From Polyangiaceae bacterium (lineage in GTDB: Bacteria > Myxococcota_A > Polyangia > HGW-17 > JALWFW01), in assembly GCA_027013865.1 (NCBI GenBank), contig JALWFW010000177.1, forward strand, positions 406-11,246: a stretch of 10,841 bases of DNA. Reading direction: 5' to 3'. The notes under the pieces are model-generated. The model searched no databases. It was given only the letters and a program-made list of their open reading frames with translations, and was not told where the DNA came from. Made by a program: the position numbers and the translations under genes. Shown piece by piece: positions 1,556 through 10,841 of this stretch; within the stretch, counting starts at the first letter, position 1, and the number at the start of each line of letters is the position of its first letter.

Positions 1556-2371
1556 TTATAGACTGAAAGGTGGAATGAAAAGGGTGTTGCCGTCTATGTG
1601 TACGTCTGCCCCAAGGACAACCGGGTGGTTTTCGGGTCCGTGTCCTGCAGGAAATCCGTACAGTACTGGAACTTCAGGCAGCAACGAGGTTACTAGGGCT
1701 GCTACATCCCGCTCGTCCAGTCCAGAAAACCGGCCGAGCACCACAGCCAGGGCTCTGTCTAAACCAGAACACCTTATCAGTTGCACCAAGGCGCGGTCTA
1801 TGCGGTACATGGGTTCGCCCACGTCCTCCAGGATGACGATGTAGCCGCTCAAATCTGGAGAGGCTTCAGTTCCACACATGGATGCCAGTACGGTCAGATT
1901 GCCTGCTGCTGCAGGACCTTGGACGCGGATTTCTTCCCCGTACAGTCGGTATGAGCGGGCAGGCATGTAGCCATCATCGAGCAGCATGGCAGTAAGGGCT
2001 CGGGAAGTACTGTCTAGACGTGGGAACTGGGTCACCACGGGTCCGTGGATGGCAGTGTGTCCGTTTGCGTGCCAGGCAAAGAGCAGGGCCGTGACATCAG
2101 AAAATCCCAGGAGCGCAGCCGATGGAGTTATGTGGTGGACTATGCGTGTAGCACCGTAACCACCGCGTGCTGCCCACAGAAGATCTGCGTATTCGGCTGC
2201 CTGTTCGAGGAGGCGTATCCTCGTGGCATCATCGGCAGCCAGGTAACTACACGGGCCTGAGGGCGGATCGGATACCTCGTGAAACACGGGTTCGCCTCCC
2301 CACTGCCTTAGTCCCTCTGCCACTTTTTCAGGATCTGCTGCCCCTGACGGATATACGATCGCTATGCGCAT
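1556..2371 (-). CDS. ldcA: LD-carboxypeptidase (peptidase S66, LdcA/MccF family)
   Basis: N-terminal IAIVYPSGA and the nucleophile motif GFSDVT, then the Glu in VILEDVGE and the His in FPAGHGPEN, give a Ser-Glu-His triad at the usual positions over the right length (271 aa). No obvious SD. Lies 21 nt after the upstream gene. Confidence 0.85.
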   Translation of the reverse strand: MRIAIVYPSGAADPEKVAEGLRQWGGEPVFHEVSDPPSGPCSYLAADDATRIRLLEQAAEYADLLWAARGGYGATRIVHHITPSAALLGFSDVTALLFAWHANGHTAIHGPVVTQFPRLDSTSRALTAMLLDDGYMPARSYRLYGEEIRVQGPAAAGNLTVLASMCGTEASPDLSGYIVILEDVGEPMYRIDRALVQLIRCSGLDRALAVVLGRFSGLDERDVAALVTSLLPEVPVLYGFPAGHGPENHPVVLGADVHIDGNTLFIPPFSL

Positions 2372-2392
2372 CAGATGTGTAACTATAGGAAA

Positions 2393-3412
2393 TCATTCGG
2401 TTTCTGTGGATTTCTTCTTTTTGCGACTTTTGCGTTTTTTACGGCTTTTGCGTTTTTTCTTTTCTCCAGAGGTGTCTGCAGGTTTGTCGCCGGATCCATC
2501 AGATTTCTCAGAGGACTCTTCAGAGTTATGGACTGAAGCGTCTTTCTGATCTTCTTCTGGGTGAGACGAGGGCTGCCCAGCATCTATCATGGAGGCCTCT
2601 TCCTCTACCTGTTCTGATGAAGTGGAGCCTGCGTCCCCAGGCTGATCATCTGAGGTCTGTGTATCGGATGGTTCCTCTTCAGTAGTGTCCTGGGTCATCT
2701 CACTGTCGGTATCCTGTGACAGTGCGCTACCTGGCTTGGCTTCAGTCTGTTCGGCGGGTTCAGTCTGTTCGGCGGGTTCAGTCTGTTCGGCGGGTTCAGT
2801 CTGTTCGGCGGGTTCAGTCTGTTCGGCGGGTTCAGTCTGTTCGGCGGGTTCAGTCTGTTCGGTGGCTTCAGTCTGTTCGGCGGGTTCAGTCTGTTCGGCG
2901 GGTTCAGTCTGTTCGGCGGGTTCGCCGCCTATGTCGGGGCTGATATCGTTTTCATCGGAAACAGACTGTGCTGCCATCTCTTCAGGCTGATCAGAAGTCA
3001 CGTCGTCTCCGGAGAGTTCAGTGGCCTCTTCAGCAGCGGGTTCCGGTTCATCTTGCGTTGTGGTAGCCGGGGATATGTCACTTTCAGAGGTATCTTCCGT
3101 ATGTTCATCCTGTAAGGTCTGGACATCTGAGTCTCCTGCTTCCAGCCATCTTTCGAAGACGTCCAGATGGCTATCACTCATCTCGTCCAGTCTCAGGAAC
3201 ATACCTGGGGCCTGATCGCCGATAGCTTCCCTCGATGTGCCCACTATCACCATGCAGTCAATGGTCTCTTCTCCCCTGGTTATTGTCATGGAGAGGCTGG
3301 TTCCCACAGGCATGGGGTCTTTGACCTGTACCTCGAACCCATCTAGGGATATGGCTTCCAGAGGTAGGTCACTGTATAGCGTTATGTCATGGTAGGTAAT
3401 AGATGCTTTCAT
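2393..3412 (-). CDS. Chimeric protein: non-canonical PilZ-like N-terminal beta-barrel domain, a highly acidic disordered region with ~10x PAEQTE tandem repeats, and a polybasic C-terminal tail (KKKRKSRKKRKSRKKKK)
   Basis: ATG at 3410-3412 is preceded by GAGAGGTG (preferred over the in-frame GTG at 3421). The first ~95 aa, with AISLDG and a ...GMFLRLDEMSDSHLDVFERWL C-terminal end, resemble a PilZ domain. They lack the RxxxR and D/NxSxxG c-di-GMP motifs. The remainder is D/E/T/S/Q-rich low complexity ending in a K/R run. Confidence 0.75.
   Translation of the reverse strand: MKASITYHDITLYSDLPLEAISLDGFEVQVKDPMPVGTSLSMTITRGEETIDCMVIVGTSREAIGDQAPGMFLRLDEMSDSHLDVFERWLEAGDSDVQTLQDEHTEDTSESDISPATTTQDEPEPAAEEATELSGDDVTSDQPEEMAAQSVSDENDISPDIGGEPAEQTEPAEQTEPAEQTEATEQTEPAEQTEPAEQTEPAEQTEPAEQTEPAEQTEPAEQTEAKPGSALSQDTDSEMTQDTTEEEPSDTQTSDDQPGDAGSTSSEQVEEEASMIDAGQPSSHPEEDQKDASVHNSEESSEKSDGSGDKPADTSGEKKKRKSRKKRKSRKKKKSTETE
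2738..2924. repeat. Near-perfect 18-bp tandem repeat (unit GGGTTCAGTCTGTTCGGC), 10 full copies plus a partial one; in frame, encoding (PAEQTE)n on the minus strand
   Basis: Read directly. Units run 2738-2755, 2756-2773 and so on to 2900-2917, with a partial unit at 2918-2924. Only three units carry single-base variants (units 1 and 8 have GGC at their 5' end, unit 7 ends GGT). Confidence 0.95.
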
Positions 3413-3453
3413 GGTGTGCACCTCTCAAAAGGAGACAGTGGGTAAAGGATGCC

Positions 3454-4776
3454 TTAGACCGGCTGAGCCGAACCGCAGTAGGGACAGAACTTCATGCCTG
3501 GCATGATTTCCTTGCCACAGGTTACGCAGTGGGGAGCTGCCTGGGCATGTTGGGTAGCTCCACAGAAAGGACAGAATTTCGATCCTTCCGGAATCTCCTT
3601 ACCGCAGTTCACGCATTTGACTTTGGGAAGTTCTGATAGTGGATTGCCGCAGTTCGGGCAGAACTTGAGTCCTGGACCCACAGGATAACCACATTTCGGA
3701 CATGCAGAAGAGCCCGGCGCCTGCTGTGGTGGAGTTTGCGTTGCTCCTGGTGCTGCCATGGTTGCCGCTGCTCCGGCTGCTGCTCCGGCTGCCATCTGTG
3801 CCTGATGAGGCTGTTGGGGCATGGCCCCTGCGGCTCCCTGGGGTGGCGGTGGCGGGGGGTATCCTCCAACACCTGCTCCCTGTGGCGGATATCCCTGCTG
3901 TCCGTACATTGCCTGCATTCCGGGATTCATGGACTGCGCCACCATTCCTGGCATCATGAATCCCATGCCAAGCCCCATGCCCATGCCCATGCCTGCACCT
4001 GCGGTTCCGTCTCCACCCGAGTTCTTGGCCAGATCTCGCATTGCATAGGCCATCTGGTACTGCTGGAATGCTCCCATGGAGTTTTCGAACAGCCCCATTC
4101 CACTGCGCTCGTCGATTTTCTTCTGTACTTCCGGCGGCGGGGTAATTGCTCCTATACGCAGATCTTCCAATTCGAGGCCGTTTTTGGCGAAGTCATCGGC
4201 AAGACGGGCCTTGGTGGCAGTGGCTATCTCATCGAAGAGGCCGGCCAGCTCCATGATACTCTTCATGATCTCGCCAATTACGTCGATGAGACGCTGCACC
4301 ACGGCATCCCTTGCCCAATTTGCCATGTCACTGGCCGTGTAGATGCGGCTGCTCTTGAGACGTTTGTTCACGAACAGAACCGGATCCACTATGCGGTATG
4401 TCAGGGAACCGAAAGAGCGCAACCTTACGACTCCCATCATGGAATCCCGCATGGGGATGGGTTCCTTGGTACCCCACTTCTGGTCGTCGATGAGTCCCAC
4501 GTCAACGAAGACCACTTCGGCCTTGAAAGGAGTTCTACCGTCGAAGGCCGCGCCGATGACCTTGCCGAGCAAGGGTAGGTTGCCTGTGGACAGGGTATAG
4601 CGACCTGGACCGAAGGTGTCCAGTGCCTGACCGCCCCTGTAGAAGATTGCCACCTGTCCTTCCCTGACGATGAGCTGGGAACCCCACTTTATGTCAGCCT
4701 CGCCGTCCTGGGGTATGCGGACGGCCATGACCTCTCGCGAATCATCTAGATATTCTATGAGATCGAGTAATGGCAT
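3454..4776 (-). CDS. SPFH/Band-7 family (Band_7_1-like) protein with a Gly/Met/Pro-rich linker and three C-terminal zinc ribbons
   Basis: RBS AAAGGAG 7 nt upstream of the ATG. The N-terminal ~250 aa (LIVREGQVAIFYRGGQALDTFGPGRY...) is typical of Band_7_1 SPFH proteins. It is followed by GMGMGMGLGMGFMMPGM / PPPPPP low complexity and then 3x [CxxCG-x8-10-KFCPxCG]. The (CATGCC)n DNA at 3963-3992 encodes the GM run. Confidence 0.85.
   Translation of the reverse strand: MPLLDLIEYLDDSREVMAVRIPQDGEADIKWGSQLIVREGQVAIFYRGGQALDTFGPGRYTLSTGNLPLLGKVIGAAFDGRTPFKAEVVFVDVGLIDDQKWGTKEPIPMRDSMMGVVRLRSFGSLTYRIVDPVLFVNKRLKSSRIYTASDMANWARDAVVQRLIDVIGEIMKSIMELAGLFDEIATATKARLADDFAKNGLELEDLRIGAITPPPEVQKKIDERSGMGLFENSMGAFQQYQMAYAMRDLAKNSGGDGTAGAGMGMGMGLGMGFMMPGMVAQSMNPGMQAMYGQQGYPPQGAGVGGYPPPPPPQGAAGAMPQQPHQAQMAAGAAAGAAATMAAPGATQTPPQQAPGSSACPKCGYPVGPGLKFCPNCGNPLSELPKVKCVNCGKEIPEGSKFCPFCGATQHAQAAPHCVTCGKEIMPGMKFCPYCGSAQPV
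3963..3992. repeat. Short hexamer repeat (CATGCC)n inside the SPFH gene, encoding the GMGMGMG linker
   Basis: Three perfect tandem CATGCC units at 3975-3992 plus a degenerate copy at 3963-3968. Confidence 0.7.
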
Positions 4777-4779
4777 GGA

Positions 4780-5262
4780 TTACTCCTTTCCTTCGCCGGA
4801 GCTCAGAATGTGTTCCCTGTCGTTCAGTGCCTGATCTATTTCTCTCAGAACGGAGGAGAAATTGATGAAGGCCATTTTCGGATCGCCACTAGCCATGGCG
4901 CTTTCGATGGCATCCATGGCATCGAAGGCCTTCTGGCGCAGTGTTTCGAGTTGCTGATCGTATTCTTCCACCTTGCGCAGTGCGTCTATTTTGGATGTGA
5001 AGAGACCGGGTGCGAAACCCATGTTGGACCAGTTGAGGCGGTCCCTAACTTTCCTGAGAAGCATGGTTGCCTGTTCTGCGTCATTGAGAAGCTGCATCTT
5101 GGTGAGATCACGTGAAATCATGACCTTTACCTGCTCCATGCGTGAATGAAGTTCGCCTAGTTTGGTACTCATGTATTCACGCAGAGCCCGATCCGTATTG
5201 CGACTCTCCTCACGTTGTCTGTAACCTTTGTAACCGGGAATTATATAATCCAAGATAGCCAT
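4780..5262 (-). CDS. Hypothetical cytoplasmic protein (~160 aa), helical/coiled-coil character, no transmembrane segment
   Basis: The ORF stop lies 3 nt before the SPFH start. GAGGAG sits 6 nt upstream of the ATG at 5262; the ATG at 5268 has no spacing to the SD and is rejected. Charged heptad-like segments (LRKVEEYDQQLETLRQKAFDAMDAIE). No family recognised. Confidence 0.65.
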   Translation of the reverse strand: MAILDYIIPGYKGYRQREESRNTDRALREYMSTKLGELHSRMEQVKVMISRDLTKMQLLNDAEQATMLLRKVRDRLNWSNMGFAPGLFTSKIDALRKVEEYDQQLETLRQKAFDAMDAIESAMASGDPKMAFINFSSVLREIDQALNDREHILSSGEGKE

Positions 5263-5277
5263 GCTCATCTCCTCTTA

Positions 5278-5622
5278 TCAGTCGTCTTCCGATTCTTCCT
5301 TTTTACCGGCTGATGCCCTGCGGTAGCCGGAGTATACGAGTCCTGCGATCACTAGGAGCAGCAATGGCCACGTACGGCCTAGACCTGCCAGCCCTGATGA
5401 GGACAAGAACCAGAAGAAGAATAGCACGGACCAAAAAGCCCAGAATTCTTTGGTGAAGGTCACCAAGGCCAGGGATCCGAACAGCGCAGTACCCACGAGG
5501 GGCCACAGTCTACTGACGGAACTGATGCCGAAAGTGACAGGAAGGGCAAAGATCAGTCCTGCTGTGATGAGGGTGGTCAGTACAGGAATGAGTACTTTGT
5601 TTTTGGAAGATTTGTCACCCAT
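5278..5622 (-). CDS. Small integral membrane protein (114 aa, ~4 predicted TM helices, acidic C-terminal tail)
   Basis: RBS CGAGGT 8 nt upstream. Starts 11 nt after the OmpA-family stop. Four hydrophobic 18-22 aa segments (VLIPVLTTLITAGLIFALPVTF, LWPLVGTALFGSLALVTF, FWAFWSVLFFFWFL..., WPLLLLVIAGLVYSGY). Confidence 0.7.
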   Translation of the reverse strand: MGDKSSKNKVLIPVLTTLITAGLIFALPVTFGISSVSRLWPLVGTALFGSLALVTFTKEFWAFWSVLFFFWFLSSSGLAGLGRTWPLLLLVIAGLVYSGYRRASAGKKEESEDD

Positions 5623-5633
5623 GGTGGACCTCG

Positions 5634-7886
5634 TTATTTGGCAAGTTTGAGTATGTGGAATTCAACCCGTCTGTTTTTGGCGCGGGCACGCTCCGAGATG
5701 TTGGGATAAATGGGTCTGGAACGACCGTATCCCTTGGTCCTGAGACGTGATGACTCGACACCCTTGGATATGAGGTAGGCACGCACTGCATCCGCACGCT
5801 TCTGGGACAGACGTCTGTTGTACTCATCGCTGCCCTTGTTGTCGGTGTGACCGTCTATGCGCACCAGTTTGATCTCTGGATGCTCTATGAGGAATGCCGC
5901 GATCTCGTCGAGCAGGAGTTTAGACCTTTCGGTCAGTCGTGCCGTATTGCGTTTGAAGTAGATCTTGCGTCTGAGAAGAATACGCGTTTTGCGGCGGTTG
6001 AGTTTGATGTGAGACTTGCGCGGCTTGCGCTTGAGGGATACCGTGACCTTTGGAGCCGGACAGGATTTGATGTCTAATTCCTTTGATACTGTAAGATATT
6101 TCCGTGATTTGATGACCACACGGTAGGTACCTGTGGGAACGGTGACGTTCTTACCGCTGGCAGGAATGGTCTCTTCCATGGAGATGTCTTTGCCTGCACT
6201 GTCCTTGCCTCTGATTGTGATAGAGGCTTTGATCTTCCGGTTTTTCTTGGCATCACGGATTTCGAAGGCCACGTCGCAGCCCTGGGCAGCCTTGTGTTTG
6301 AGTACAAGTGATACAGAGGCCTTTTTGCCGGGTTCGACCCTGACTTCCGTAGTGGCCTGCTCGAATCCCTTCTTGTATGCGATCACCTTGTATGAACCGG
6401 CCTTCAGGCTGCATGTCGAGAAACTGCCGCTCTCGTCGGCCAGTACGTCACTCATGCCAACTCCCGGAAGTGAGACTGCAGCACCAGGAACCGGATTACC
6501 CTTATCGTCCTTGATGAGACCAACGATGGCCCCAGTGACCGGGGCAGCCGCCTTTGCAGGCTCCTTGACCACTTTGATGATCTCTTTGGGTTTGCACACA
6601 GGGCAATTGCATGCAGGACACTGGGCGGAAGACGAGGTTTGAGAAGAAGGCACGAAAGTGATGGAGGCCAGGACATTGTATGGAGGAAGTGATGGAGCGA
6701 CCTTGTACCCTGGCTGCGAAATATTGATGTCTGCTCCTAGTCCTATGCTCACTTCCGGCGTGACCATGGCATTCAGGCCCAGGGTGAGTACCTGGCTTGT
6801 ATTGCCGTTTTTGGCAGCTTCGGTATCTACTGACAGATACTGCTCGATGTTACTGAGATTGGAATCGTCATCCACGAAGTAAATGAGGGAATACTCCATG
6901 AATGGGGTGAGATATACGGGACTTCCGGCCACCATGAACCTGTGGGTGTAGTCTGCGGCCAGCCGTAGCAGCGCTCTCGAAGGCATGACGCCCATGGCGT
7001 AACGGTGGACTATATATGTATAGAAGAGTTCTGGAAGGACGTCGGACTCTGCGTTGGCCCAGTCAGGAGAATCAAGCAGAGAATAGGAATTGTCCTGGAT
7101 ATAACCGGCATTGAGATGAAGTCCCACAGGGATACCCGCAGACTGTTTCAGACTGTAGGAGGCCAGGAGCATGGCAGCTATGGACGTCGCTCCAATGTCG
7201 GGAGCTATGTCGCCGACACCTGAATAAAGTCTGACGAAGCCCTCGAAACCTATATCAAGGCCAGGTGCCGCGTCTATGGGCATCGCCCACTTGCCGCCAA
7301 GCATGAAATCACCCATGGAACGTTGAACCTCTGGCTCGTAGGTGTCTGCTTCCCGGGTACGCTCATTGCGGTTGCTGGATGACAGGAGTGCCAGTTGCAG
7401 TTCGATGGAAGGGTATACCCGAAATGCCATGTGAAGGCCACCTGCCAGTCTGGTATTGGTCTCGTCATGGCCTGCAATGAGGAAATCCGACTGACGGAAC
7501 CATTCGAGGTGTAGTCCCATGGCGACACGATGGTTCAGGTCGGTAAGTACCGTGTGCATCAGTCCTGTTCCAAGGCCTGATGTCAGAGGAATCATGTGAG
7601 CGTGTTCGGTGTTGGGACGTGTACCGGATGCAGGTGGTAGGTCGGCAGTGGCCGGTTCTGCGGAGGGGGTTCTTTCGGGCTGAGTCTCGGGTTTGGGGCT
7701 GGTGACCTGAGGAGATGTCGTCACGGTAGCCTGAGGCTGAGTCTCGGGGGCTGTCCCGTTGCCCGGATCCGATGCCTGAGAAGTTGCCTTGTTCTGCTGT
7801 GCCTGTGTAGGCAGCGCCATGGCCAGTGCGATAACCATGGTTGCCATCGCCACTACAGAATTTCTGACCCGCGTCCTTACGTACAT
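5634..7886 (-). CDS. OmpA-family outer-membrane protein (750 aa): signal peptide, Pro/Thr-rich linker, ~330-aa beta-barrel-like region ending ...ASITF, CPACNCPVC cluster, two CarboxypepD_reg-like Ig-fold domains, C-terminal OmpA/MotB peptidoglycan-binding domain
   Basis: ATG at 7884-7886 with GGGAGG 6 nt upstream (preferred over the TTG at 7913). Signal-peptide-like YVRTRVRNSVVAMATMVIALAMALPTQAQQ. OmpA_C motifs are conserved (IDGHTDNKGSDEYNRRLSQKRADAVRAYL...NRRVEF). Two ~80-aa GxY...G.Y.V prealbumin-like repeats. Confidence 0.85.
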   Translation of the reverse strand: MYVRTRVRNSVVAMATMVIALAMALPTQAQQNKATSQASDPGNGTAPETQPQATVTTSPQVTSPKPETQPERTPSAEPATADLPPASGTRPNTEHAHMIPLTSGLGTGLMHTVLTDLNHRVAMGLHLEWFRQSDFLIAGHDETNTRLAGGLHMAFRVYPSIELQLALLSSSNRNERTREADTYEPEVQRSMGDFMLGGKWAMPIDAAPGLDIGFEGFVRLYSGVGDIAPDIGATSIAAMLLASYSLKQSAGIPVGLHLNAGYIQDNSYSLLDSPDWANAESDVLPELFYTYIVHRYAMGVMPSRALLRLAADYTHRFMVAGSPVYLTPFMEYSLIYFVDDDSNLSNIEQYLSVDTEAAKNGNTSQVLTLGLNAMVTPEVSIGLGADINISQPGYKVAPSLPPYNVLASITFVPSSQTSSSAQCPACNCPVCKPKEIIKVVKEPAKAAAPVTGAIVGLIKDDKGNPVPGAAVSLPGVGMSDVLADESGSFSTCSLKAGSYKVIAYKKGFEQATTEVRVEPGKKASVSLVLKHKAAQGCDVAFEIRDAKKNRKIKASITIRGKDSAGKDISMEETIPASGKNVTVPTGTYRVVIKSRKYLTVSKELDIKSCPAPKVTVSLKRKPRKSHIKLNRRKTRILLRRKIYFKRNTARLTERSKLLLDEIAAFLIEHPEIKLVRIDGHTDNKGSDEYNRRLSQKRADAVRAYLISKGVESSRLRTKGYGRSRPIYPNISERARAKNRRVEFHILKLAK

Positions 7887-7911
7887 ATCCGCCTCCCTTA
7901 CTGATGGTGAC

Positions 7912-7940
7912 AATATATAAGAAACCTCGTGCGGTTTCCA
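7912..7940 (-). promoter_or_regulatory. Candidate sigma-70-type promoter of the six-gene envelope operon: -35 TGGAAA (7935-7940), 17-nt spacer, -10 TATATT (7912-7917)
   Basis: Read on the minus strand as TGGAAAccgcacgaggtttcttaTATATT. Lies 26 nt upstream of the ATG (7884-7886) and immediately upstream of the GGGAGG RBS. A T6 run (7945-7950) follows the rluA stop. Confidence 0.3.
7921..7938. promoter_or_regulatory. Perfect palindrome GAAACC-N6-GGTTTC overlapping the -35 element and spacer of the operon promoter; candidate repressor operator
   Basis: 6-bp perfect inverted arms read directly. The position over -35 and the spacer is typical for a repressor site. The half-sites have a GAAC/GTTC flavour, but the spacing is N8 between GAAAC cores. 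Confidence 0.35.
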
Positions 7941-7968
7941 CCTGAAAAAATAGTGAGCCTTGTCGGCC

Positions 7969-8895
7969 TTACGTCAGATACTCTGCTGAAACGAAGGGAA
8001 CGAAGGATTCGGGAATGAGGGGATCGGTCACTTCCATGCGGCTGCGTTTCTGGCGTACCGGTTCTGGGGTATCGAAGCGTATGGTTCGAGCCCACAACAG
8101 GAAGTGGTCGTCTCCGTTGTCCAGTGGCTCTCCTCCATAAAGTAAGTCGCCCATGATGGGATGGCCTTCATGGGCCAACTGTACCCTCACCTGGTGGCGT
8201 CTGCCGAAGCGCGTGACCACCCTGACCACTGACCATTCCTGTGTATGACGCAGGGGAATGACCAGAGACACTGCCCGCTTACCTCGACCATGGGGACCGC
8301 TCTCGTAAGAAACCCGATCCCTGCCCGTGGTCATGATGTGTCCTTCGGCCCAGAAACGTTCTGTCAGGCTTCCGCGCACTACGGCAATGTATTCCTTCTC
8401 CACCTGGTGGTTGGCGAAACTTTGACGCAGGCGGTGTGCAGCTTCCTTGTCCAGGCCCACTAGGAGCAGACCACAGGTCCCGTTGTCTAGGCGGTTTAGT
8501 ATTCCTGCTTCCCGGGGCGGGTCGGCCTGAATGTCAGGGAATAGGGCCAGCACTCCACCGGCTGCCGTGGGACAGTCTTCCGGAAGTATGGGCATGGTGG
8601 GCAGGCCATGGGGTTTTCTCATTACGGCCCACCTCTCCGCACGTTGCAGGAGTTCGACAGTGTCAGGGCAGGGTTTGGGAAACCATTCGTCATCGCGAGG
8701 TGGAATCGACAGCGTGAGCTCTACGACACTTCCCTGGGACATACGGTCACCGAACGACAGGGTACGGCTGCCCAGACGTACACCTCCTGCTGAAAGGAAA
8801 GACTTCCACTGTCTTCTCGTGCGTCCCGGATACAGCGTGTCCAGGATTTTCTCAATTCTCCATCCGTGCCACTGGGAATCTATTGATAGCTTCAT
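7969..8895 (-). CDS. RluA-family 23S rRNA pseudouridine synthase (RluD/RluC-like) with an N-terminal S4-like domain
   Basis: Catalytic-Asp motif NRLDNGTCGLLLVG (HRLDxxTSG-like), KEYIAVVRG, and VRVQLAHEGHPIMGDLLYGG at the C-terminus. 308 aa. Confidence 0.85.
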   Translation of the reverse strand: MKLSIDSQWHGWRIEKILDTLYPGRTRRQWKSFLSAGGVRLGSRTLSFGDRMSQGSVVELTLSIPPRDDEWFPKPCPDTVELLQRAERWAVMRKPHGLPTMPILPEDCPTAAGGVLALFPDIQADPPREAGILNRLDNGTCGLLLVGLDKEAAHRLRQSFANHQVEKEYIAVVRGSLTERFWAEGHIMTTGRDRVSYESGPHGRGKRAVSLVIPLRHTQEWSVVRVVTRFGRRHQVRVQLAHEGHPIMGDLLYGGEPLDNGDDHFLLWARTIRFDTPEPVRQKRSRMEVTDPLIPESFVPFVSAEYLT

Positions 8896-8942
8896 GAAAA
8901 GTGCTTTGATTTCAAGTAGTTATAGAGATAGCTCTGGTGGGT

Positions 8943-9530
8943 TCAGTCATAGAACGGTTCGGGTGGCGGTGGTGCTGGCTGAGCACTTCCATCATCCTGT
9001 TCGCTGCCGTCATCCTGCTGGATGGGCTGCGGAACTATGGGCGGAGCTGCCGGAGCCGGTGGACGTACACCGAAACCGGTGTCGGATTCAGGAGACTTGT
9101 CCTGGATGGCATTTCGATGGTGTGCGGTTCCGTGAGCTACTTTGCGTCTGAGTCGCCTTCTGTGTGGTTTCCTCGAAGCTGGCCTCCTGACTGAACAGCG
9201 GAAGGCCATGCCGGAAACGAAAATCTCGAGGAACTGACCTTCTCGTTTGGCCCCGTACGTGTTTACGACCACGACGTTGGCACCCAAATTGAAGGCTTTG
9301 TTCCGGGCATCGGTAAGCGCTGCCTCCCAGATTGCCTCCTTGGAAGAGGTCCCCCGCGCAACTCCCTTTATTTGATCAGTGGCTGTACACCCGCTGCCAG
9401 GGGATGTCTTCATGAGAACACGGATATTCTCACTTCCTGGCACGGGTCTTGGCATGTGGGCCTCCGGCATCCCCGTGCATGCTGAAAGACCCAGAAATAC
9501 GATGACTGCTGTGATGCTGTAAGGCTTCAT
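8943..9530 (-). CDS. Lipoprotein (lipobox LSAC) with a YbjQ/UPF0145-like domain and a polybasic, Pro-rich C-terminal tail
   Basis: RBS AAGGAG 7 nt upstream. N-terminus MKPYSITAVIVFLGLSAC. The segment ...ARNKAFNLGANVVVVNTYGAKREGQFLEIFVSGMAF resembles the YbjQ LGADAVVGI...MVSVSGTAV core. The tail is RRPASRKPHRRRLRRK followed by PPAPAAPPIVPQP...PPPPEPFYD. Confidence 0.7.
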   Translation of the reverse strand: MKPYSITAVIVFLGLSACTGMPEAHMPRPVPGSENIRVLMKTSPGSGCTATDQIKGVARGTSSKEAIWEAALTDARNKAFNLGANVVVVNTYGAKREGQFLEIFVSGMAFRCSVRRPASRKPHRRRLRRKVAHGTAHHRNAIQDKSPESDTGFGVRPPAPAAPPIVPQPIQQDDGSEQDDGSAQPAPPPPEPFYD

Positions 9531-9583
9531 GGTCGGCTCCTTGTGCAGGGATAACGATACGTCATAAATCCAAGAATTCTACC

Positions 9584-10060
9584 TCACAGACGCATGTCTC
9601 TTATTATTGCCGCCACGGTGCCCACGGCCTCGCCGGAGTCAAAGGAAAAACGCCTGCCGCTGCGGTACATGCGGTAGCCTGAATCGAGCTCTTTGGCCAC
9701 CACTATGAGATCTCCCGGTTTGAAAGGGCCTAGAGCTTCATCCATCTCCACTGCGAAAAATTCGCCTTCTCCTGTGTAGGATGCATCTACTGTTATGTAC
9801 CTTACGAGATGGCCGCTACGGGTATAAAGTGGGATGGACAGTGCCTGGGTCACAGGCACCAGGGAACGGGCGATTCCCTTTTCTCTCTTGAGATATCCTT
9901 TCTCCACCAGTTGGTTCACATGAAAGCTCACGGCGTTGGTGGACTTGAAGTTGAGCTCTTGGCAGATTTCCCTGTATGACGGCGCGTATCCGTGGCTTTT
10001 GAAGTATTTTTCGATGAATCGTAGTACTTCGTTCTGACGTGGAGTAAGCCCGTCTGCCAT
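9584..10060 (-). CDS. LexA-like transcriptional repressor (158 aa): LexA-type winged-helix DNA-binding domain plus a short, divergent C-terminal domain
   Basis: ATG at 10058-10060 with AAGGAGG 7 nt upstream. N-terminus MADGLTPRQNEVLRFIEKYFKSHGYAPSYREICQELNFKSTNAVSFHVNQLVEKGYLKREKGIARSL matches the LexA_DNA_bind pattern. The C-terminal 88 aa contain GDLIVVAK (LexA GDLLAVHK-like) but no GxSM Ser and no Ala-Gly cleavage site by eye. The 391-aa ORF in the track is an out-of-frame extension over the peptidase gene. Confidence 0.7.
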   Translation of the reverse strand: MADGLTPRQNEVLRFIEKYFKSHGYAPSYREICQELNFKSTNAVSFHVNQLVEKGYLKREKGIARSLVPVTQALSIPLYTRSGHLVRYITVDASYTGEGEFFAVEMDEALGPFKPGDLIVVAKELDSGYRMYRSGRRFSFDSGEAVGTVAAIIRDMRL

Positions 10061-10841
10061 TATTTGCCCTCCTTGCTCCACGCTTTGCCCCGCACCATGT
10101 CGGTTATGTCCCATGGTGACGGGCCACCGCCCAGATAGCGGTGGAACCAGTCGAGATGAGCTGCGTAATAAAGAGGCATGGATTTGACGAAGTTGGGCCA
10201 GTGACCGTCGTTGGGGAAGATGATGATTCTTGCGGGAATGCCACGTCTGCGCAGTGCCGTAAACAGCTGCATGCTCTGGGTGTATGACACGCGGTAGTCC
10301 TTCTCTCCGGTGATGATGAGGGTTGGGGTCTTCATGTTCTTGACATAGGTGGACGGAGACCACTTCCTGTAGCCTTCGGGGTTGTCCCATGGCGTGCCGC
10401 CCACGTCCCACTCGGGGAACCACAGCTCCTCGGTTACGCCGTACTTGGATGGCAGGTCGAACACGCCCATCATGGAGGCGATGGCCTTGAACCTGTCGGT
10501 GTGGCCCAAAAGCCAGTTCATCATGTAGCCTCCGTATGACCAGCCCATGGCTCCCATGCGGTTGGGATCCACGTAGGGCAGAGAGGCCAGATAGTCGGTG
10601 ACCTTCATCACGTCCTCGTAGACCTTGCCTCCCCAGTCTTTGGAGATGGCGGCTGTGTACTGCTGTCCGTATCCAGTGGAACCGTGGGGATTTGGGAACG
10701 CCACCACGTATCCTGCGCCCGGATATACCTGCCAGTCTCCTCTGAAGGAATCGGACCACTGTCCCTGGGGACCTCCGTGAACGTTGAGGATGAGCGGATA
10801 TTTCCTGCCAGGCGTAAATCCGTGGGGCTTTACTATGAATA
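10060..10841 (-). CDS. S9-family serine peptidase (prolyl oligopeptidase / acylaminoacyl-peptidase type), C-terminal catalytic domain; the 5' end lies beyond the window
   Basis: The reading frame is open to the window edge (…KPHGFTPGRKYPLILNVHGGPQGQWSDSF…). Nucleophile elbow GWSYGGY, Asp in ITGEKDYRV and His in PNDGHWP form the catalytic triad. The TAA stop at 10060-10062 overlaps the LexA-like ATG (TAATG). Confidence 0.9.
   Translation of the reverse strand, partial: FIVKPHGFTPGRKYPLILNVHGGPQGQWSDSFRGDWQVYPGAGYVVAFPNPHGSTGYGQQYTAAISKDWGGKVYEDVMKVTDYLASLPYVDPNRMGAMGWSYGGYMMNWLLGHTDRFKAIASMMGVFDLPSKYGVTEELWFPEWDVGGTPWDNPEGYRKWSPSTYVKNMKTPTLIITGEKDYRVSYTQSMQLFTALRRRGIPARIIIFPNDGHWPNFVKSMPLYYAAHLDWFHRYLGGGPSPWDITDMVRGKAWSKEGK

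Follow-up and report, generated by a model that had tools for sequence, protein, structure and literature searches.

We examined a 10,841-nucleotide stretch of a Polyangiaceae bacterium genome (GenBank assembly GCA_027013865.1, contig JALWFW010000177.1, positions 406 to 11,246 of the forward strand), which is referred to below as the window, and focused upon a short lexA-like gene near its right end. Between position 1556 and the right end of the window, every gene is located on the minus strand, and the lexA-like gene directly follows a gene encoding an S9 family serine peptidase. The features of this locus are as follows.

10060..10841, minus strand: 3' part (259 codons and the stop) of an S9 family serine peptidase gene of the Dpp5-like type, cut by the window end
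10058..10074, minus strand: gene junction by direct reading, with AAGGAGG at 10074-10068, TAA at 10062-10060 and ATG at 10060-10058
9584..10060, minus strand: lexA-like open reading frame (ORF) by translation, 158 aa with a TGA stop at 9586-9584
9866..10051, minus strand: LexA-type winged-helix DNA-binding domain (aa 4-65; Pfam)
9587..9856, minus strand: shortened, catalytically dead S24-like C-terminal domain (aa 69-158; hhalign, alignments and Foldseek)

The two genes have one A in common, which ends the TAA stop of the peptidase and begins the ATG of the lexA-like gene (TAATG), while the Shine-Dalgarno sequence AAGGAGG lies 7 nt upstream of this ATG, inside the end of the peptidase gene. 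Direct reading bears out both of these features as described in an initial annotation of this DNA, and its assignment of the upstream gene to the S9 peptidases is likewise correct (Pfam Peptidase_S9, 3.9e-64). The same annotation regarded the pairing as unusual. However, the TAATG one-base overlap is among the commonest junctions of co-directional bacterial genes, and therefore the overlap is unremarkable by itself. The layout of the junction would allow translational coupling. A hairpin at 10038-10082 that spans the Shine-Dalgarno sequence and the start codon was considered as a coupling element and rejected, because its stability is no better than that of shuffled sequences (z -0.53).

DNA-binding head and self-cleavage apparatus

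The LexA-type winged helix proposed for the N-terminus was readily confirmed. LexA_DNA_bind (PF01726) matches residues 4-65 of the ORF over model positions 3-64 of 65 with 75 bits (2.7e-21, Pfam), and Foldseek matches the same domain to solved LexA structures, with 33% identity to 1lea. The match to TIGR00498 (NCBIfam) is confined to positions 3-66 and reaches 61.8 bits versus a cutoff of 110.95. In an alignment read by eye, the base-contacting E44 and E45 of Escherichia coli LexA are replaced by S45 and F46. For a protein of this kind, a "LexA" label assigned automatically from the DNA-binding domain alone would wrongly imply a function in the SOS response.

For the C-terminal ~90 aa, no S24 model match was found in either Pfam (PF00717) or NCBIfam, even at E<=1. 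Self-cleavage of LexA requires both Ser119 and Lys156 (Slilaty & Little 1987, as cited in PMC1524924), and neither residue has an equivalent in the 158-aa protein. The Ser119 position is filled by D107 in the ungapped register (our own count), by L110 in the MAFFT alignment, or by A109 in the hhalign alignment, and never by a serine; the protein contains no serine between S94 and S127 and none within F101-D126. Similarly, both MAFFT and hhalign place E. coli K156 (in EVTVKRL) opposite Tyr129, and no lysine follows K123 anywhere in the protein. The initial annotation had rightly noted a short C-terminal region without a GxSM serine, but it considered the lysine of GDLIVVAK to be kept from the catalytic dyad. 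This is incorrect, as that residue (K123) is the counterpart of K135 within the E. coli sequence DLLAVHK and not of K156. The scissile bond is missing as well, which agrees with the earlier claim. No Ala-Gly dipeptide exists anywhere in the 158-aa protein, and the cleavage loop reads IPLYTRSGHL, with S82-G83 replacing Ala84-Gly85 and a 2-residue deletion just before it. According to hhalign, the S24 fold has additionally lost ~13 residues before the lysine strand and ~20 residues of the distal hairpin, while the conserved C-terminal strand is retained (VGTVAAIIRD, matching GxVxxxxR).

The absence of the serine, the lysine and the Ala-Gly site, combined with the deletion of two S24 segments, supports the proposal that this is a LexA-family protein incapable of self-cleavage, and the loss is more complete than originally supposed. 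Neither RecA-stimulated nor alkaline autocleavage should be possible for the 158-aa protein. It adds an extreme case to the LexA relatives without self-cleavage: its DNA-binding head is conserved in full, but nothing remains of the nucleophile, the base or the scissile bond, and roughly one third of the S24 fold is missing as well.

Relatives of the protein and ancestry of its C-terminal domain

The 158-aa protein forms a singleton cluster in a collection of 15 billion proteins, and a word-indexed homologue search returned only the protein itself, while looking up contigs by exact match to it gave none. The next-best HMMER matches (<=96 bits) carry a tandem pair of LexA DNA-binding domains. 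By architecture, the 149 nearest sequence-cluster representatives are distributed as follows.

Tandem DNA-binding domains: 56 of 149
Short, or DNA-binding domain only: 36 of 149
DNA-binding domain with an undetected tail: 32 of 149
DNA-binding domain with an S24-like domain lacking GxS[ML]: 13 of 149
Canonical LexA: 12 of 149

Non-canonical architectures thus outnumber canonical LexA among these representatives, and by this breakdown an inactive or replaced S24 domain behind a LexA head is common in sequence space. The closest relatives of the DNA-binding domain (P0004-P0039 and others) are ~150-230 aa proteins with two tandem LexA_DNA_bind domains and no S24 domain, an architecture for which we know of no description in the literature.

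The most informative relative is P0139, a 181-aa protein with 32% identity to the window protein, to which the latter aligns over residues 5-155. P0139 also has a short C-terminal domain without the serine and the lysine, and both proteins end in the same VGTV..I.RD strand even though they come from unrelated organisms. The P0139 gene (L023 9208-9753) is divergent from mraZ-rsmH, followed by a metallophosphoesterase gene, and has no peptidase neighbor; the adjoining mraZ-rsmH marks the start of the cell-division cluster. P0139 in turn matches P0109 at 9e-29, and P0109, P0089 and P0058 all have significant Pfam S24 matches yet lack the catalytic serine.

Profile comparisons lead to the same domain family. 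When the C-terminal domain alone was aligned by hhalign against an alignment of canonical LexA C-terminal domains, it scored 24.5 versus 11.6 +/- 2.4 for shuffled sequences, none of which (0/200) reached this value. A combined profile of the window protein and P0139 scored 30.9 (P 5e-5); its 70 colinear columns extend over the entire domain and take in the terminal strand, and none of the column shuffles (0/150) reached this score. In a phmmer search restricted to the C-terminal domain, the top matches among 152 retrieved proteins were all S24-type LexA C-terminal domains aligned in the same register, and tblastn aligned residues 5-155 of the query with an annotated Streptomyces lexA gene. An AlphaFold2 model built with a LexA alignment had a predicted local distance difference test score (pLDDT) of 72-81 at residues 70-125 and of 46-66 beyond, whereas prediction from the single sequence was uninformative (pLDDT 40). 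In Foldseek, the best matches to the former model were full-length LexA structures (E ~1e-8 versus 6e-4 for the DNA-binding domain alone). Based upon the profile comparisons together with the transitive chain from P0139 through P0109 to Pfam S24, we consider it quite likely that the C-terminal domain is a truncated S24 descendant.

The main alternative is that an unrelated small sensor or oligomerization domain was fused to the LexA winged helix. The silence of the Pfam and NCBIfam S24 models would fit such an origin, as would the HMMER score of only 3.7 bits against the canonical C-terminal domain profile (fourth of 2001 in a ranking that included shuffles) and the promiscuity of the DNA-binding domain, which is evident from the 32 undetected C-termini and 56 tandem arrangements tabulated above. 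However, an unrelated domain would not readily account for the colinear hhalign alignment that no shuffle equals, for phmmer matches that are exclusively S24-type, for the link through P0139 and P0109, or for the preference of Foldseek for full-length LexA by 4-5 orders of magnitude. Thus, a non-S24 origin seems doubtful.

Searches of phage and plasmid collections yielded only matches at the level of the DNA-binding domain or end-to-end alignments to canonical lexA genes, so these collections give no sign that the lexA-like gene is derived from a mobile element. We found no relevant paper in a literature search aimed at LexA paralogues with a dead S24 domain, and a further search yielded just the Synechocystis crhR paper (PMC1524924).

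Interpretation of the lexA-like gene

Our preferred explanation, to which we assign a probability of about 0.7, is that the gene encodes a non-cleavable, probably dimeric LexA-family DNA-binding regulator carrying a shortened, inactive S24 descendant. The remnant beta domain, with its C-terminal strand VGTVAAIIRD, would serve mainly as a dimerization module and possibly in sensing, with a stable dimer of the protein occupying a palindromic operator. Its repressor activity would be free of RecA control; relief of repression, if any, would depend not on self-cleavage but on ligand binding, on interaction with another protein, or on degradation by general proteases. The repressor would be produced from the mRNA of the upstream S9 peptidase in this lineage only, and the peptidase itself would probably be an exported enzyme of a housekeeping type rather than a dedicated regulator of the repressor.

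The protein can be compared with several known systems. It resembles canonical LexA (E. coli; TIGR00498; PF01726 + PF00717) in its N-terminal winged helix, in its domain order and in a C-terminal domain that is colinear with S24 (a VD.S..G...FA strand, a GDL(I/V)V motif and a terminal G.V....R strand). It differs in its length (158 aa versus ~200), in scoring below the family cutoffs, in lacking equivalents of Ala-Gly, Ser119 and Lys156, and in its two deletions from the S24 fold. A non-cleaving relative has been described in Synechocystis sp. PCC 6803, where sll1626 is without Ala-Gly and carries an Asp instead of Ser119; it is considered to be non-cleavable and controls genes outside the SOS response (PMC3091678, PMC1524924). 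Of the three residues on which cleavage depends, the Synechocystis protein lacks just two (PMC1524924), and it therefore retains the lysine. Like sll1626, the window protein combines a LexA DNA-binding domain with the loss of both the serine nucleophile and Ala-Gly, and in the ungapped register it even has an Asp (D107) at the Ser119 position. Unlike sll1626, it has also lost the lysine, and its domain is truncated; we found no specific sequence relationship between the window protein and cyanobacterial LexA. The same combination of a LexA DNA-binding domain with an inactive S24-like domain is shared by uncharacterized metagenomic proteins (P0139, P0089, P0109, P0058, P0120 and P0130). P0089, P0109 and P0058 differ in having a full-size S24 domain that Pfam detects, while P0139 differs in its gene neighborhood and in its modest identity to the window protein.

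Several observations weigh against the preferred explanation. In addition to the low HMMER score of the C-terminal domain mentioned above, no close orthologue was identified among the 1.84 billion representatives that were scanned in full by HMMER, and as a result neither conservation of the C-terminal domain nor selection upon it can be demonstrated. The analysis likewise yielded no operator, no target gene and no inducing signal, and a dimeric state would be argued only by analogy with canonical LexA. Regulators of this general kind are not new: non-cleaving LexA relatives are already known from Synechocystis, and LexA-type proteins with an inactive S24 domain are common in metagenomes. Since no target, signal or conserved partner was identified, the 158-aa protein alone neither opens nor closes a major question.

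A more far-reaching proposal, which we regard as speculative and rather improbable, is that the window protein and P0139 belong to an unrecognized class of "mini-LexA" proteins in which the truncated, inactive S24 remnant has taken on a new role in sensing or heterodimerization. If this were true, such a protein could pair with the canonical LexA of the organism and modulate its SOS response, or it could instead respond to peptides released by the exported peptidase that is expressed alongside it; in either case, its output would be controlled without proteolysis of the repressor.

At the opposite extreme, the gene might be a lexA in decay, with loss of its C-terminal domain under way and either no function or only residual DNA binding left. 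Its status as an orphan singleton without an orthologue, the two deletions and absent catalytic residues of its C-terminal domain, and the low model confidence over the last 30 residues would all be expected of such a remnant. However, the lexA-like gene looks real. Its frame is intact from a strong, well-placed Shine-Dalgarno sequence and ATG to the stop codon, its sequence is identical in three assemblies (over the 3' two-thirds of the gene in the ENA and Logan assemblies), and its G+C content at third codon positions (GC3) is 0.585, similar to its neighbors. The DNA-binding domain scores as in functional LexA proteins, the deletions are in frame with the terminal GxVxxxxR strand preserved, and P0139 is similarly short and equally devoid of the serine and lysine in an unrelated organism. 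We therefore consider gene decay to be unlikely.

The peptidase neighbor and other features of the window

The initial annotation suggested that a partner protease might control the repressor, and the co-translated S9 peptidase is the obvious candidate, as it could conceivably cleave the repressor in trans upon receiving a signal. The adjacency of the two genes, their one-base overlap, the strong Shine-Dalgarno sequence, and the lack of a cleavage apparatus in the repressor itself would be compatible with such a switch. There is also precedent in IrrE/DdrO of Deinococcus and ImmA/ImmR of ICEBs1, where a peptidase gene likewise adjoins the gene for a repressor without self-cleavage. These pairs, which are described in part in PMC6868357, consist of cytoplasmic COG2856 metalloproteases and XRE-family repressors, and their pairing is conserved. 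The present pair differs, as it joins an S9 serine peptidase whose orthologues have signal peptides to a repressor with a LexA winged helix rather than an XRE domain, and the pairing is not conserved.

The peptidase family itself is highly conserved and widespread: 4285 matches have E<=1e-20, and the 120 best of those listed show 65-75% identity; the few matches with named organisms are from Ignavibacteria and Acidobacteria. The motifs GWSYGG, GEKD and NDGHW are visible in the translation of the fragment, and its best NCBIfam match is dipeptidyl-peptidase Dpp5 (225 bits, positions 413-654 of 655). Orthologues with 63-75% identity are annotated as dipeptidyl or acylaminoacyl peptidases, and such S9 enzymes are exopeptidases that act upon short peptides. 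Most of 25 full-length orthologues are ~685-705 aa in length and begin with a typical Sec signal peptide. By extension from these orthologues, the window enzyme, which is represented by a fragment without its N-terminus, is probably exported as well and could not reach a cytoplasmic repressor.

The conservation of the pairing was evaluated in 83 orthologous peptidase loci (3 orthologue contexts and 80 metagenome loci), and an ORF with a LexA DNA-binding domain was found within 2.5 kb in none of them (0/83), even though the same LexA hidden Markov model detected the LexA genes in positive control loci. The base composition of the peptidase gene is also distinct from its surroundings. GC3 of the fragment (10060-10839) is 0.746 versus 0.579 for the nine other minus-strand genes pooled (1556-10060; Fisher p 1e-7), which may reflect either horizontal acquisition or a strong expression-linked codon bias. 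Given the 0/83 result, the peptidase-free neighborhood of P0139, which is the closest architectural relative, and this GC3 contrast, the adjacency of the peptidase and lexA-like genes is predicted to be lineage-specific, and the peptidase may be a newcomer at the locus. That the repressor is encoded right behind the peptidase seems to be an isolated coincidence of gene order, and we consider control by this peptidase to be very unlikely.

It is just as improbable that the peptidase and lexA-like genes come from different genomes and were joined during assembly: the window contig is the only assembly that spans the junction and the GC3 values clearly differ, but the two reading frames are whole and meet precisely at the junction, orthologues match the peptidase tail to its last residues (query residues up to 259), and a false join would have to fall inside the DNA-binding domain, which would require a second LexA-type gene after a peptidase gene, an arrangement seen in 0/83 loci. 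Two independent assemblies of this population, one from ENA and one from Logan (L021, L022), match the window at 100% identity where they overlap it but break off within the lexA-like gene, at 9936 and 9914, 124-146 nt from the junction. These ends may reflect a drop in coverage or strain variation at this site. The promoter of the unit formed by the peptidase and lexA-like genes lies beyond the window end, and the longer contigs, among them an ENA scaffold with downstream genes, continue the locus only in the opposite direction.

The last suggestion of the initial annotation was that the repressor regulates the neighboring envelope operon through a GAAACC palindrome. The palindrome does exist and lies between the rluA stop and the start of an ompA-like gene.

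7921-7938: GAAACC-N6-GGTTTC (exact match), an inverted repeat situated between rluA and the ompA-like gene

Besides this exact copy, the window contains one copy with 1 mismatch, which is located inside the DUF4156 ORF. Two or more matches also occurred in 13/200 shuffles, and hence the count does not exceed the chance expectation. The palindrome overlaps two calls on the minus strand, one terminator-like (after rluA) and one promoter-like. With its count at chance level, its overlap with a terminator-like site and no link to the repressor, the palindrome was rejected as an operator of the lexA-like protein, and the proposed regulation of the envelope operon through it is not supported. Viewed as a feature in its own right, the slightly longer repeat GGAAACC-N6-GGTTTCT (7912-7940, minus strand) overlaps a promoter-like site, TGGAAA-17-TATATT, upstream of the ompA-like gene, which starts at 7886 and has the Shine-Dalgarno sequence GGGAGG. 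The role of this repeat is ambiguous, because it overlaps the promoter-like site and yet also scores as an rluA terminator.

Two further ORFs of the window have uncommon features. The PilZ-like ORF at 2393-3421 (minus strand) contains an acidic tandem repeat, (TEPAEQ)n. A blastn comparison of the window with an ENA scaffold (L107 4769-4941) gave staggered matches across this repeat, with a gap of 100 nt in L107 and 108 nt in the window, which suggests that the repeat copy number differs between the two sequences. The ORF at 3454-4776 (minus strand) encodes a 440-aa SPFH/Band-7 protein with a Gly/Pro/Met-rich linker and several C-terminal zinc-ribbon motifs, which is an unusual-looking fusion.

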